Part shown: piece by piece, positions 46,125-58,556 of the stretch | Position numbering within the stretch: position 1 is the stretch's first letter | How the letters are laid out: the number at the start of each line of letters is the position of its first letter | Made by a program: the position numbers and the translations under genes | Notes under the pieces: model-generated | What the model was told of the DNA's origin: nothing | Databases searched by the model: none | What the model saw: only the letters and a program-made list of their open reading frames with translations | From: a virus | Length of the DNA stretch: 64,000 nucleotides | Direction: 5' to 3' (one strand) | Virus record (IMG/VR): IMGVR_UViG_3300047557_003034 | Location: 13,362-77,361 of that record

Positions 46125-47981
46125 ATGGACGTCTCACAGAGCATTTTATCGGATATCACTGTCTACATGAAGTATGCAAAATACAATCCCGAACTTCAAC
46201 GAAGAGAAACGTGGAAAGATTTAGTAGATCGTAATAAAGAAATGCACTTAAAAAAGTTCCCACAACTTTCTGAAGAGATCGAAGAAGCGTATAAGTACGT
46301 GTACGACAAGAAAGCTCTACCATCCATGCGTTCTATGCAGTTTGCTGGTAAGCCAATAGAGATAAGTCCGAACCGTGTTTACAACTGTGCTTATTTACCT
46401 ATCGATGATTGGAGAGCTTTTGGTGAGACTATGTTCTTATTGCTAGGAGGTACTGGTGTAGGTTTTTCAGTACAGAAGCACCACGTTGAAAAGCTTCCAG
46501 AAATACGTAAGCCAGATCCAAAGAAACAAAGGCGTTTCTTGATTGGAGATAGTATAGAAGGTTGGGCTGATGCAGTAAAGGTTCTAGTTAAAGCTTATTT
46601 CGAAGGTGGTACAACACCGGTATTTGATTTCAGTGATATTAGACCAAAAGGAGCTGCATTGGTGACTTCAGGTGGTAAAGCACCCGGTCCTCAGCCACTT
46701 AAAGAGTGTTTAATCAAAGTTCAAGGAATACTAGATAGCAAGAACGACAACGATAGACTTAAACCAATTGAAGTACATGACATGGTTTGTCATATAGCCG
46801 ATGCAGTACTTGCAGGAGGTATTCGCAGAGCAGCTCTAATTAGTCTCTTTAGTGCAGACGATGAAGAAATGATTTCTGCAAAATCAGGCGCTTGGTGGGA
46901 GCTCCACCCCGAAAGAGGCCGTGCAAACAACTCAGCAGTTCTACTCAGAAACAAAGTAACAGAAGAGTTTTTCTTTGAACTGTGGGATAAGATTAAAGCT
47001 AGTGGAGCTGGTGAACCCGGTATCTATTTTAACAACGATAAAGATTGGGGTACCAATCCTTGTTGTGAAATCGCATTGAAACCTTTTCAGTTTTGTAATC
47101 TCTGTGAAGTAAACGTCAGTGATGTAGTTGATCAGGATGATCTAAACGCTCGTGTCAAGGCTGCTACTTTCATTGGTACTTTGCAAGCTTCTTACACAAA
47201 CTTCCACTACCTTCGTCCAATCTGGCAACGTACAACTGAGAAGGATGCTTTGATTGGAGTTGGAATGACTGGTATTGGTTCTGGTGTTGCTCAAAAGCTT
47301 GATCTCAAGCAAGCAGCAGAAGTTGTAAAGCAAGAGAACGAAAGAGTAGCAAAACTGCTCGGTATCAACTCAGCTGCTAGATGCACTACTATCAAGCCAT
47401 CCGGTACATCATCACTCACCTTAGGAACTTCTAGTGGTATTCATGCTTGGCATAACGATTACTACATTAGGAGAATTAGGGTTGGTAAGAATGAAGCAAT
47501 CTACACACACCTTCTTATAAACCATCCTGAACTTATTGAGGATGAATACTTTAGGCCTCATGACACAGCTGTAATTTCTGTACCGCAAAAAGCACCTGAA
47601 GGAGCTATTTTGAGAACAGAATCTGCATTGGAACTACTTGATAGAGTTAAACACTTCTATCAGAATTGGATCAAACCAGGACATAGGACTGGTCAAAACA
47701 CTCACAATATCTCAGCAACGGTATCAATCAAAGACGATGAGTGGGAAATAGTAGGAAAGTGGATGTGGGAAAACAGAAAGTTCTATAACGGTCTCTCAGT
47801 ACTACCATTCTCAGATCATAGCTACAAACAAGCACCTTTTGAGGATTGTACTAAGGAAGTATATGAGGAGATGATGACACACCTACACGGTATCGATCTT
47901 TCCCAAGTTATAGAATACAACGACAATACTGATCTGAAAGGAGAAGCAGCTTGTGCTGGCGGAGCCTGTGAAATAGTCTAA
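46125..47981 (+). CDS. nrdJ: Class II (adenosylcobalamin-dependent) ribonucleotide reductase
   Basis: [40 protein letters not shown]-terminal ACAGGACE; no beta subunit gene adjacent. Confidence 0.88.
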
Positions 47982-47982
47982 A

Positions 47983-48177
47983 GTGGGAAGAGAGGATTTT
48001 GAAGAGGGAACACACTATTATCTTGAAGGTGGGAGGGTTGTTTTCACAGCTCTCTACCACCTCGAGAGAGGTTGTTGTTGCGGTTCAAAATGTAGACACT
48101 GTCCGTTTGATCCTCCCTATGAGAGTGGTAACGAAGTAGTTAAAAAAGAGTTTGGTGATTTGAAACAATCACCGTAG
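47983..48177 (+). CDS. Small cysteine-rich protein (DUF5522-like)
   Basis: [20 protein letters not shown]. Confidence 0.7.
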
Positions 48178-48182
48178 ATTTA
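48151..48182 (+). promoter_or_regulatory. Bacteroidota-type -33/-7 promoter
   Basis: TTTG, 20 nt, TAGATTTA upstream of queD. Confidence 0.55.
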
Positions 48183-55689: not shown

Positions 55690-55701
55690 TAACTTTATAT
55701 C

Positions 55702-56250
55702 ATGATAAACGCACAACAAATAGTAGAAGCAGGTCTCCTAAAGTTGGAGCACAGCAAAGGCAAACCAGCCCAGATTGGATACGATCTATCCTTAAAAGCA
55801 GTTCAAAGAATTGGTGGTGCATACGGAACTACTACAGGACATCCGATAATGGAGGATATGGAGATTGGCAAAGTTCTAAAGGATAAAACGCATCTTGCAA
55901 CCTACACACCAGTAGAAACTACAAAGGTAGACGGCATACAAGGCTGGTTATTGTACCCAGGTTCATACGATATTACTTTCTGGGAAGGATGTAAGATACC
56001 ATCCAACTACGTAGGTCTCATAAGACAGAGATCTTCAATGCTGAGAAACGGTACAGTACTACACTCCTCTGTATTTGATCCAGGATTTGAAACAGACTTC
56101 ATGGGAACTGTAATGGTTGTGAATGAAACCATATTTGTTGAGCAGGATGCAAGAGTAGCACAAATCTACTTCCACGAATGTACACCAGTCGATAATGAAA
56201 ATCTTTACCAAGGTCAATGGCAAAATGACAAGCAGCGTTCATCTCTATGA
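55702..56250 (+). CDS. Trimeric dUTPase/dCTP deaminase-fold protein
   Basis: GYDL, RSS..R.G, VFDPGF, RVAQ, Y.GQWQ. Confidence 0.8.
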   Translation: MINAQQIVEAGLLKLEHSKGKPAQIGYDLSLKAVQRIGGAYGTTTGHPIMEDMEIGKVLKDKTHLATYTPVETTKVDGIQGWLLYPGSYDITFWEGCKIPSNYVGLIRQRSSMLRNGTVLHSSVFDPGFETDFMGTVMVVNETIFVEQDARVAQIYFHECTPVDNENLYQGQWQNDKQRSSL

Positions 56251-58556
56251 CACAAGAAAAAAGTTATGTAACAGTCAATAGTAAGGAAACCCTACTAGAC
56301 CTTGTAAAGCACATTCAAGAAAGTGAATACTGTGCTTATGATACTGAAACCGATAGTTTGAATCCACGTAAAGGATGTATTATCGGTTTCTCTGTCTCAG
56401 GTCAGGTAGGTAGAGGTTACTACATGCCGGTCAAACAATTTAAAGATGGCTCTTTACAAGACATCTACATAGAAGATCGCAAAGCAAGTGATCTTGCTAA
56501 GGTAGTTATAACAAAGCTACTAGACAAGAAGCTGATAATGCATAACGCTTCGTTCGATATTCGATTTACAAAAAACCACTATGGAATAAACCTACTACCA
56601 GCTTTATATGCTGATACTGGACTTTTGGTTCATACTGTAAAGGAGGAAGGTGCTTTCGGTTATGGTAATCCTTTTGGTTTGAAGCCAATCGCAATGATGG
56701 TGCAGAGTGAGATTGGACTCGATGTTGAAAAGGATGCTAACGAAGAACAGCTCGCACTCAAAGCTAGTATAAAAGAGAATGGTGGGCAAGTCTCAAAAGA
56801 GAACTTTGAAATCTATAAAGCAGATCAGGAAATCTTATCTAAGTACGCAGCAGCTGATACTGATCTCACTCTTAGAATCTATTTTCATTTTTTGGAGATA
56901 CTCAAACAAGAAGGTCTTGAGAAGTTTTTCTTTGAGGAAGAGGTTATGCCACTTTACAAAGAAGTAACAATTCCAATGGAAGATCACGGTGTGAGATTGG
57001 ATATTGAACTGATGCAAAAGACAAAGGAGAATATCGTAGCTGATCTAGCAAGGCATGCTGAATTAGTAGTAGAGGAATTGTTGAAAGATGGTAGGATTAG
57101 AGGTTGGATTATAGATCGAGCTGTTGAAGCTTATCCACCAAAAGCTAAAGGTACGTTTGCACAAAGGTTACTTGAGCAAAATGATATTGAATTAGTACGC
57201 TCTGATAAGACTGGTAAATTCACTATCAACAAATCAGCTGTAGCATCTCTGCCAGAGTCTCCAATCAAGGACTACTTGATGACTGGTGACACCAGCTATT
57301 TAACAAAAGAGCAGATAGTAAAATGTTCTCTTTCCTTATGGAAGGAAGATAACGATGGGAAGTTCTTTAACATCCAATCAAAAGATCAGTTAGGTAAGAT
57401 TGCTTTTGAGGTACTTGGTATCAAACCACTATCTGAGACCAGCAAAGGCAAACCACAGTTCGATGAAGACCTCATTCAATCAATAAGTGGTGAGTATACG
57501 TGGGCTAAGTATTTGAGAATTTACAACAAGCTTACAAAGATCAAAACAGCCTACATAGATAGATTCCTAGACTCATCAGAAGATGGAAGGTTTTATCCCT
57601 ACTTCAAACAGAACGGTACAGTATCGGGAAGGTACGGATCAGATCTACAACAGCTTCCTAAACCACTTGAGCCTGGACAGGATGAGCAGATAGTAATGGA
57701 TTACACAAACGTAGTGAGAGCTTTCTTTATCTGTGATCCAGGGTATAAACTTCTTGACACAGACTATCAATCTCTTGAACCTAGAATCTTTGCAGCTGTG
57801 GCTGGTGATCAGGGATTAAAGGATATCTTTGCAAATGGTTGGGACTTTTATTCAACGGTAGCAATCAGAACTGAAAAGCTAGAAGGAGTCAGTCCAGACA
57901 CCAAAGCACCTAACTACCTCAAGAAACTAGATCCGGTGAAAAGACAAACAGCCAAGTCTTACTCACTCGGTATTGCGTACGGTATGTCAGGATACGCATT
58001 AGCCATGACTCTCAACATACCAGCAAAGGAAGCAGACAAACTAGTGGAAGGCTATCTCGAAGGATTCCCAGAACTCAAAAAGTGGAGAGAAGAGTCGAGA
58101 GCTTTTGTAAAAGCAAACGGATACATCAAGAATAAAGTAGGACGAATAAGACACCTACCCGTAGCTAAGGAAATCTATGAAGCTATGGAAGATAGGTTGC
58201 TTGATTGGAAAGTGAGAAAGGAACTAGAAAGAGAGTACGGACTTGATAAAGTAAACTCTCTCTACAGAGACTATAGGAATGCGCTTAATAACTGTTTAAA
58301 CTACCAAATTCAGAGTTTTGCAGCTTCGGTGGTGAATCGAGCAGCTGTACAAATAAACAGGAGATTTCGCAGTGAAAACATACGAGGACAGGTGATTGCT
58401 CAGATACATGACCAGCTTGTGTGTCAAGTTCACGAAGAAGATACAAAACGTGCATGTGAGATTGTGCAAGAGTGTATGGAGAATACAACCATACTAGATG
58501 GTGTAGCCTTAGTAGCTGAACCAGAGGTTACGATTAATTTTAGAGACGGTCACTAA
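56247..58556 (+). CDS. polA: Family A DNA polymerase with 3'-5' exonuclease
   Basis: ExoI DTET, ExoII HNASFD, ExoIII YAAAD; motif A DYQSLEPR, motif B RQTAKSYSLGIAYG, motif C IHDQL. Confidence 0.93.
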   Translation: MTQEKSYVTVNSKETLLDLVKHIQESEYCAYDTETDSLNPRKGCIIGFSVSGQVGRGYYMPVKQFKDGSLQDIYIEDRKASDLAKVVITKLLDKKLIMHNASFDIRFTKNHYGINLLPALYADTGLLVHTVKEEGAFGYGNPFGLKPIAMMVQSEIGLDVEKDANEEQLALKASIKENGGQVSKENFEIYKADQEILSKYAAADTDLTLRIYFHFLEILKQEGLEKFFFEEEVMPLYKEVTIPMEDHGVRLDIELMQKTKENIVADLARHAELVVEELLKDGRIRGWIIDRAVEAYPPKAKGTFAQRLLEQNDIELVRSDKTGKFTINKSAVASLPESPIKDYLMTGDTSYLTKEQIVKCSLSLWKEDNDGKFFNIQSKDQLGKIAFEVLGIKPLSETSKGKPQFDEDLIQSISGEYTWAKYLRIYNKLTKIKTAYIDRFLDSSEDGRFYPYFKQNGTVSGRYGSDLQQLPKPLEPGQDEQIVMDYTNVVRAFFICDPGYKLLDTDYQSLEPRIFAAVAGDQGLKDIFANGWDFYSTVAIRTEKLEGVSPDTKAPNYLKKLDPVKRQTAKSYSLGIAYGMSGYALAMTLNIPAKEADKLVEGYLEGFPELKKWREESRAFVKANGYIKNKVGRIRHLPVAKEIYEAMEDRLLDWKVRKELEREYGLDKVNSLYRDYRNALNNCLNYQIQSFAASVVNRAAVQINRRFRSENIRGQVIAQIHDQLVCQVHEEDTKRACEIVQECMENTTILDGVALVAEPEVTINFRDGH

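Follow-up and report, generated by a model that had tools for sequence, protein, structure and literature searches.

A probable phiST-type 7-deazaguanine cassette in an immutovirus-like phage, with accessory phosphoribosyltransferase, pyrophosphatase-fold and kinase-fold genes

The 64,000-nucleotide stretch of viral DNA analysed here (hereafter, the window) spans positions 13,362 to 77,361 of IMG/VR record IMGVR_UViG_3300047557_003034, which measures 77,361 bp, has an estimated completeness of 41% and is a 77-kb fragment from an immutovirus-like phage of Bacteroidota. Between positions 46125 and 58556 the window holds a run of genes centred on 7-deazaguanine (DG). In order, these encode the ribonucleotide reductase (RNR) NrdJ, a DUF5522 protein, QueD, QueE, an FMN-reductase-like flavoprotein, several small open reading frames (ORFs), DpdL, an HNH-like ORF, a P-loop protein (hereafter, Kin66), FolE, a 2H phosphoesterase, a protein resembling tRNA-guanine transglycosylases (TGTs), a phosphoribosyltransferase (PRTase), a protein of the dUTPase/DCD fold and PolA (Table 1). 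An original prediction, made from the letters and their translations, read this set as a pre-replicative route in which the PRTase would load DG onto ribose phosphate and a kinase, NrdJ and PolA would carry the product into DNA; as an alternative, it suggested recycling of guanine released by a DpdA enzyme. Pfam, PHROG, NCBIfam and tblastn comparisons confirm every gene that it named, all on the plus strand within this span, and its interpretation as a whole is partly supported. A guanine-type PRTase, an enzyme of a nucleoside triphosphate (NTP) pyrophosphatase fold and, in Bacteroidota phages, a protein of the nucleoside monophosphate (NMP) kinase fold are regular parts of cassettes built around the transglycosylase homologue DpdA3. 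Recycling is the better reading for the PRTase, and the proposed PRTase–kinase–NrdJ–PolA route is unlikely.

Table 1. Genes of the span 46125–58556, in window coordinates, with the matches on which each assignment rests.
Feature	Position	Strand	Evidence
NrdJ, class II (B12) ribonucleotide reductase, RTPR-like	46125..47981	+	Pfam Ribonuc_red_lgC and RNR-II_ins_dom; best NCBIfam RTPR, 287 bits (cut-off 340 not reached)
DUF5522 small protein	47983..48177	+	Pfam DUF5522, 3.8e-18
QueD, CPH4 synthase, phage subtype with CxxxHGY	48197..48658	+	Pfam PTPS, 7.2e-14; phrog_2389, 1.5e-39
QueE, 7-carboxy-7-deazaguanine synthase, radical SAM	48663..49538	+	phrog_2076, 1.5e-40; several QueE NCBIfam models, below cut-off
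FMN-reductase-like flavoprotein	49637..50311	+	Pfam FMN_red, 3.6e-13
DpdL, QueD paralogue, 115 aa	51468..51815	+	LADPHRHMF; 43% identity to phiST CGPG_00067 over 100% of its length; phrog_17812, 1.1e-28
HNH-like homing endonuclease ORF	51865..52494	+	phrog_5104, 9.5e-17; H..N..N pattern at C terminus of translation
Kin66, NMP-kinase-fold P-loop protein	52455..52949, alternative GTG start 52428	+	30% identity to phiST CGPG_00066, E 2e-15; P-loop GRICSGKGS
FolE, GTP cyclohydrolase I	52950..53594	+	Pfam, 1.7e-44; NCBIfam FolE models, ~1e-45
2H phosphoesterase, LigT/Acb1-like	53603..54142	+	Pfam 2_5_RNA_ligase2, 5.8e-06, and Acb1, 5.6e-05, both near or under cut-off
DpdA3-type guanine transglycosylase homologue, 270 aa	54139..54951	+	tblastn to phiST CGPG_00065 (E 1e-8) and immuto DpdA (5e-11)
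Gpt-like 6-oxopurine PRTase, short form, 136 aa	55128..55538	+	Pfam Pribosyltran, 5.8e-12, above cut-off
dUTPase/DCD-fold NTP pyrophosphatase-like protein	55702..56250	+	Pfam DCD, 50.7 bits (cut-off 27)
PolA, family A DNA polymerase with 3'-5' exonuclease	56247..58556	+	Pfam DNA_pol_A, 2.4e-62; DNA_pol_A_exo1, 4.3e-12

By its gene content, the locus appears to be a phiST-type 2'-deoxy-7-deazaguanosine (dDG) cassette, made up of FolE, QueD, QueE, DpdL and DpdA3 and lacking QueC. Phage phiST, which carries this same set, has all its dG replaced by dDG (Cui, Hutinet et al., NAR 2023, PMC10516641). FolE, QueD and QueE are encoded together in the window, and the CxxxHGY motif of its QueD is common to the QueD proteins of phiST, immuto, BUCT-ZZ01 and ACP17. 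DpdL carries the signature LxxxHRHxF at the site where QueD has CxxxHGH. A hidden Markov model built from immuto QueF detected no QueF-like ORF in the window, and no QueC was found in the full record, which is only 41% complete. QueC is also absent from phiST and from a relative that shares this type of cassette and is 96% complete, and none of the 160 fetched loci combines DpdL with QueC. No match to the 12.4-kb span was returned by megablast against phage records; the relatives described here were all found via protein searches.

The DpdA3 homologue was modelled with AlphaFold2 from 47 homologues as a TIM barrel (predicted local distance difference test, pLDDT, 96.9), which Foldseek matches to TGTs with an E-value of about 1e-7 and probability 1.0; its identity to phiST CGPG_00065 is 26%. 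Residues D54, N55, E59, D87, Q119, H189 and D213 are invariant in the 47 sequences, the acidic motifs DNSAFE, PD and S.DS are conserved, and where TGTs have their catalytic motifs the acidic residues do not vary. The same alignment contains no conserved Cys/His zinc site. Across 170 related loci the longest DpdA3 ORF is 318 aa, and no relative of 474–2000 aa with a fused kinase or other domain was found (weak evidence; the 430–470 aa range was not specifically sought).

The PRTase is a genuine member of the cassette. Its family occurs in 23 of the 50,697 records of the phage database, namely in phiST-like, immuto-like and PA5oct-like phages, BUCT-ZZ01, two Brevundimonas phages and two unannotated faecal contigs, and in all five lineages whose neighbourhoods were inspected the gene lies among or near those for QueE, QueD and FolE. 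When IMG/VR loci were retrieved by the PRTase alone, 65 of 80 held 7-deazaguanine genes, at a median distance of 21 bp from the PRTase to the nearest of FolE, QueD or QueE, and they cover both QueC-type (36) and DpdL-type (8) cassettes. A DpdA-family gene was found in every PRTase-bearing lineage examined. The phages with partial modification that were retrieved with QueE (Vibrio nt-1, phiSM, mycobacteriophages and haloviruses) gave no PRTase match; QueE tblastn returned only 63 records, the QueE subfamilies being too divergent, and served solely as a list of such phages.

The sequence of the PRTase resembles that of a canonical guanine enzyme. Its nearest NCBIfam model is the xanthine PRTase PRK09177, at 48.3 bits and short of the cut-off of 138, and its matches in the PDB are the purine PRTases 1vdm and 4z1o and the xanthine-guanine enzyme 1a95. 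The protein is 48% identical to the PRTase of immuto and 31% to the Gpt-like PRTase of phiST. Its motif VVDDICDSGVT fits the pattern DDxxD[TS]G.T, in which the acidic pair of the phosphoribosyl pyrophosphate (PRPP) motif is followed by the aspartate specific to 6-oxopurines. Among 114 distinct phage homologues, some only ~25–30% identical, D70, D71 and D74 are kept in 112–114, all 114 have the third aspartate of DDxxD(T/S)G, and the stacking residue W115 is retained in 111. We take this third aspartate to correspond to D92 of E. coli Gpt and D137 of human HGPRT, and to contact N7 of the purine. In adenine and pyrimidine PRTases the N7-contacting aspartate is replaced. Loading of DG is unexpected for such a protein, because an enzyme for a base that lacks N7 would not be expected to keep the N7 aspartate invariant.

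A search of five complete genomes (MA9V-3, D479, ACP17, Roos and CP220) found no Pribosyltran domain. The PRTase is thus dispensable, as expected of a salvage step that the host can supply, and its patchy presence fits host-suppliable guanine salvage rather than a step through which an unnatural base would have to enter. Together with the canonical guanine-type residues, this makes recycling of DpdA-released guanine, the secondary suggestion of the original prediction, the better account of the PRTase. Phages that combine a PRTase and genes for 7-carboxy-7-deazaguanine (CDG) with no DpdA would instead favour direct loading. MIJ3 (PA5oct-like), BUCT-ZZ01, ACP17 and Roos gave no match to the DpdA3 profile or to Pfam TGT; the lead was dropped for MIJ3, BUCT-ZZ01 and ACP17, each of which has a divergent TGT-like protein.

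These divergent proteins are an observation in their own right. ACP17, BUCT-ZZ01 and the PA5oct-like phages encode a TGT-like protein of 420–540 aa (L009:7692-8966, L004:12224-13474 and L003:5044-6666, in our locus numbering) that Pfam TGT misses. It carries the motifs DSGGLQ, MSFDE, HxLGxGS and SYDS, scores 82% against DpdA3 in hhalign and has GT4 glycosyltransferases and DpdL as its neighbours; it possibly represents a distinct DpdA subfamily with base glycosylation.

Two further accessory proteins are tied to the 7-deazaguanine genes, as had been proposed. The first, Kin66, is a homologue of phiST CGPG_00066, and its model (pLDDT 87.7) indicates an NMP-kinase fold of the adenylate or UMP/CMP kinase type, to which Foldseek assigns it with probability 1.0. 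The best structural match is 3lw7 (TM 0.69, root-mean-square deviation 3.5), and the polynucleotide kinase 4gp6 is a weaker one (TM 0.60); Pfam AAA_18 scores 20.4 bits, under its cut-off of 29.4, and NCBIfam gives no match. In the phage database, matches to Kin66 are confined to the phiST group and Chryseobacterium phage MA9V-3, where the gene lies between DpdL and DpdA3. The order DpdL–Kin66–DpdA3 is kept in phiST, MA9V-3 and four IMG/VR loci (L101, L102, L017, L025). Kin66 is thus found only in phages with both DpdL and DpdA3; MA9V-3 and D479, each with this pair, have no PRTase. A side observation concerns MA9V-3, whose DpdL-like sequence forms the C-terminal third of an annotated protein of 293 aa (L006:9117-9998) with no Pfam match, a possible fusion of DpdL to an N-terminal domain.

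The second is the protein of the dUTPase/DCD fold. Among 80 loci retrieved by DpdA3, 72 contain a DCD-fold ORF, which lies at most 700 bp from DpdA3 in 69 of those 72, and contigs as short as 2 kb still show the two together. These counts overstate independence, because a single syntenic T4-like clade (gp46/47, gp45, gp44/62, RegA, PolB) contributes most of the 80 loci. Even so, about eight arrangements of the pair are seen among PolA-type and T4-type phages, for example DpdA3-DUF3310-DCD, DpdA3-PRT-DCD-PolA, PRT-DCD-DpdL-Kin66-(FolE)-DpdA3, QueD-DCD-DpdL-Kin66-DpdA3, DpdA3-dNMP kinase-DCD and FolE-PRT-DCD (PRT, PRTase; dNMP, deoxynucleoside monophosphate). In phiST and immuto, which have no DCD-fold gene, a MazG-like or PRA-PH-like pyrophosphatase is encoded instead, with FolE on one side and DpdL or DpdA3 on the other. 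By NCBIfam, the window protein is closer to dUTPase (PRK02253, 85 bits, cut-off 130) than to dCTP deaminase (36.6 bits), and its PDB match is 9w59, a 'probable dUTPase' (1e-9). Compared with E. coli Dcd, the deaminase glutamate presumably is replaced. This DCD-like gene may be a housekeeping phage dUTPase, because two genomes, each at least 96% complete, have no other member of the dUTPase superfamily. D479 points the opposite way, carrying it as a second copy in addition to a canonical dUTPase elsewhere.

Two neighbours of this pair in the relatives deserve mention. In 61 loci a DUF3310 protein is encoded between DpdA3 and the DCD-fold gene, and in the T4-like clade a GT-A-like protein of 287 aa with a DSD motif directly follows the cassette DCD-fold gene (L110:11672-12532 and 53 other loci). 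The latter is a glycosyltransferase of GT-A type rather than a kinase.

We favour a mechanism in which DNA is modified after it has been copied and the released guanine is salvaged, a tentative choice to which we assign a probability of roughly 0.45. FolE, QueD and QueE, by homology to characterised enzymes, would convert GTP to CDG, which DpdL is predicted to decarboxylate to DG. DpdA3 would then swap guanine for DG on replicated DNA, as its TGT fold and conserved acidic residues suggest. The Gpt-like PRTase would turn the released guanine into GMP and would not load DG onto ribose; in this way the GTP pool used by FolE would be refilled, free guanine would be kept low and a near-isosteric exchange could run to completion. 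Such recycling would close the loop, because every exchange frees one guanine and every DG costs one GTP. The proteins of the NMP-kinase and dUTPase folds would act as nucleotide-pool helpers, for example in converting GMP to GDP and in clearing dUTP or another deoxynucleoside triphosphate (dNTP).

Several points weigh against this account. Guanine salvage explains the PRTase but neither the NTP-pyrophosphatase-fold gene nor the kinases: a pyrophosphatase-fold gene travels with DpdA3, whether DCD-fold or MazG-like, and several lineages have NMP or dNMP kinases, from three families, inside or next to the cassette; a swap confined to DNA leaves both unexplained. DpdA3 is a bare barrel of 260–280 aa without the TGT zinc subdomain. 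The roles of DpdL as a CDG decarboxylase and of DpdA3 as a transglycosylase are published predictions that failed heterologous tests: E. coli expressing dpdA3 and dpdL made no dDG, the action of DpdA3 on DNA has never been demonstrated, and the post-replicative model was inferred solely from the presence of a DpdA homologue (PMC10516641). The argument from the N7 aspartate is also weaker than it looks, in that the 7-deazapurine PRTases TubE and ToyH lie outside the 114-sequence comparison. Finally, the window PRTase is without about 20 residues of the flexible catalytic loop, or hairpin, that joins strands 2 and 3 in 1vdm (query residues 51–64 align to 49–84). The immuto PRTase (L005:9983-10378, 131 aa) is short as well, its gaps falling in the same columns of the alignment; the homologues from BUCT-ZZ01 and MaInes have a longer loop, and the archaeal and E. 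coli enzymes possess it too.

The strongest rival holds that DpdA3 acts on free nucleotides, so that guanine would be replaced completely before replication, in the manner of hmC in T4 and Z in S-2L and contrary to the published post-replicative model. The DCD-fold or MazG-like enzyme would cleave dGTP to dGMP, at once clearing dGTP and supplying the substrate on which DpdA3 exchanges the base; Kin66, or a dNMP kinase in other lineages, would rephosphorylate the resulting dDGMP, host Ndk would yield dDGTP for incorporation by any polymerase, and the PRTase would again salvage guanine. Although we consider it unlikely, we give this scheme real weight, because the pre-replicative pathways of T4 and the Z-genome phages have as their signature a dNTPase combined with an enzyme that changes the base and with an NMP kinase. 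The close DpdA3–DCD pairing in several gene orders and in two phage types argues for it, as do the non-homologous MazG-like and PRA-PH-like enzymes that fill the same place in phiST and immuto, the conserved DpdL–Kin66–DpdA3 order, the minimal DpdA3 with its missing zinc site, and D479, where a dNMP kinase separates DpdA3 from a DCD-like gene that is additional to the canonical dUTPase. It would also accommodate the restriction of full replacement to phages with DpdA3, the failed reconstitution in E. coli and, according to a report cited there, an ADG nucleoside in CP220-infected cells (PMC10516641). Against it, all characterised members of the TGT superfamily act on polynucleotides, and the DCD-like gene may just be the phage dUTPase. 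The T4-like clade, which supplies most of the DpdA3 loci, has no P-loop kinase within 3 kb of DpdA3, and Kin66 is present in only 6 of the 80. Thus, of the nucleotide-level chemistry originally proposed, a broader step is kept alive by the linkage of NTPase and kinase genes, and entry through the PRTase is not supported.

That entry is improbable both as first put forward for this locus and in a tubercidin-like variant: the PRTase would load DG or, in the more plausible variant, CDG, with DpdL decarboxylating the nucleotide, after which a kinase would bring the product to the di- or triphosphate, the RTPR-type NrdJ would reduce it and PolA would incorporate dDGTP, while the dUTPase-fold protein depletes dGTP. 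FolE, QueD, QueE and a PRTase without QueC do match the architecture of the tubercidin cluster (PMC6112128; bioRxiv 10.64898/2026.04.15.718813), the PRTase is embedded in the cassette, the window NrdJ is closest to triphosphate reductases, and an NMP-kinase fold is at hand. However, TubE, the one 7-deazapurine PRTase that has been characterised from a pathway of this kind, uses CDG and rejects DG (PMC6112128), and the phage enzymes all keep the N7-contacting aspartate. MA9V-3 carries DCD, DpdL, Kin66 and DpdA3 with no PRTase, and CP220, whose neighbourhood is uninformative, its genes being scattered, replaces all G (PMC10516641) without one. Among the Pfam-scanned ORFs of the span there is no UbiD, GMP-reductase or Nudix/HAD partner, and the universally present DpdA3 would be left without a role. 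NrdJ and PolA do not behave as specific partners either: other cassettes sit beside a class I RNR or none and beside T4-type PolB or other polymerases. Given this variety of polymerases and RNR classes around the cassette, we regard the two as ordinary neighbours from the replication module, in which PolA is the replicative polymerase.

An equally improbable view takes the PRTase, the kinase and the dUTPase-fold protein as ordinary genes of phage nucleotide metabolism, brought near the cassette only by a shared early replication and nucleotide module; it draws on the position of the cassette between NrdJ and PolA, amid RecA-like, DnaB, 5'-3' exonuclease and DenV-like genes, on the dUTPases and dNMP kinases that large phages commonly carry and on the Bacteroides phages DAC16-23, which have a DCD-like homologue and gave no DpdA3 or DpdL match, but it is countered by the rarity of the PRTase family and the 7-deazaguanine genes beside each inspected member, by the absence of PRTase matches from the partial-modification phages, by the confinement of Kin66 to phages with DpdL and DpdA3, and by a DpdA3–DCD linkage that holds down to contigs of 2 kb and across several gene orders.

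The remaining genes of the span are peripheral to this argument. Upstream, the flank encodes the RecA-like and DenV-like proteins, the 5'-3' exonuclease and DnaB; downstream lie GroES, GroEL and a metallophosphoesterase. The DUF5522 gene between NrdJ and QueD is kept in DpdL-type and QueC-type relatives (L012, L014, L019-21, L097-L100, L103, L104), and its product may be a further partner of the cassette or of the RNR. The HNH-like ORF separates dpdL from the kinase gene and overlaps the 5' end of the latter. It looks like a homing-endonuclease insertion, because DpdL directly precedes Kin66, with no HNH-like ORF between them, in the close relatives L097 and L099; D479 has an HNH-like ORF at a similar place. 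The 2H phosphoesterase, which sits between FolE and DpdA3 and weakly matches LigT and the anti-CBASS protein Acb1, has a homologue in only one related locus (L017) and is accessory, with no conservation alongside the cassette. For the FMN-reductase-like flavoprotein, no homologue was found among about 170 related loci; it was considered as a substitute for a flavin-dependent decarboxylation partner of the UbiX/UbiD type and was rejected on the grounds of that absence.

The complete replacement of guanine by 7-deazaguanines is the sole whole-base replacement in phage DNA now assigned to a post-replicative swap, and the conserved accessory genes open this swap-after-copying view to direct experimental test. 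They also specify which components a reconstitution would still need. If the nucleotide-level route is true, the cassette would offer enzymes for making 7-deaza-dGTP and DNA in which every G is 7-deaza-G; if it is not, the PRTase would still explain how these phages afford two guanine nucleotides per modified base. The paper that defined DpdL and DpdA3 makes no mention of a PRTase or kinase and set CGPG_00066 aside as not conserved (PMC10516641), and our literature search found no later work mentioning DpdA3.

Among known systems, the locus is a member of the phiST-type dDG system, from which it differs in phage lineage, in the type of NTPase and in the placement of the PRTase. The two share the biosynthetic set without QueC, and DpdL, DpdA3, Kin66 and the PRTase all have counterparts in phiST (43%, 26%, 30% and 31% identity, respectively), where the MazG-like protein, DpdL, the kinase-fold protein and DpdA3 are CGPG_00068, CGPG_00067, CGPG_00066 and CGPG_00065. 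However, phiST is a 79-kb Cbastvirus of Cellulophaga, whereas the window phage is immutovirus-like with PolA-GroES-GroEL synteny; the NTPase is MazG-like in phiST and of the DCD/dUTPase fold here; and the phiST PRTase lies 17 kb off, beside a dNMP kinase and an RNR, rather than inside the cassette. The modification was measured in phiST only, and the window phage is uncultured.

Immuto has the closest PRTase (48%), the same order of PRTase/FolE, DpdA3 and PolA-GroES-GroEL, and a PolA that matches that of the window at E 1e-298. It encodes a PRA-PH/MazG-like hydrolase in place of the DCD-fold protein and an AAA_28 kinase in place of Kin66, and its end product differs, because it has QueC, QueF and DpdN but no DpdL. 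The window PRTase resembles Gpt and the archaeal 6-oxopurine PRTases (1A95, 1VDM, 4Z1O) in its PRPP motif, in the aspartate that follows the acidic pair and in the purine-stacking segment WI..PWE; it departs from them in its score (48 against 138 bits), in its missing residues between strands 2 and 3 (~20) and in occurring only in phages with 7-deazaguanine genes.

T4 (gp56 dCTPase, gp42 and gp1 kinase) and the Z-genome phages (MazZ, PurZ and DatZ) encode a dNTP pyrophosphatase beside replisome genes, together with an enzyme that modifies the base and an NMP kinase. The enzyme layout of the window is similar but its central enzyme is non-homologous, and the likeness is best taken as an analogy. 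The tubercidin and toyocamycin clusters likewise unite FolE, QueD and QueE with a PRTase, TubE or ToyH, which acts on CDG or preQ0, and that of tubercidin also lacks QueC. The tubercidin pathway is proven to take a 7-deazaguanine base to the nucleotide level: TubE forms the ribonucleotide of CDG, which is then decarboxylated (PMC6112128; bioRxiv 10.64898/2026.04.15.718813). TubE differs from the window PRTase in being an HPRT-like protein of 194 aa, and its UbiD decarboxylase, GMP reductase and Nudix partners are absent from the phage locus, which has a TGT-family enzyme instead.

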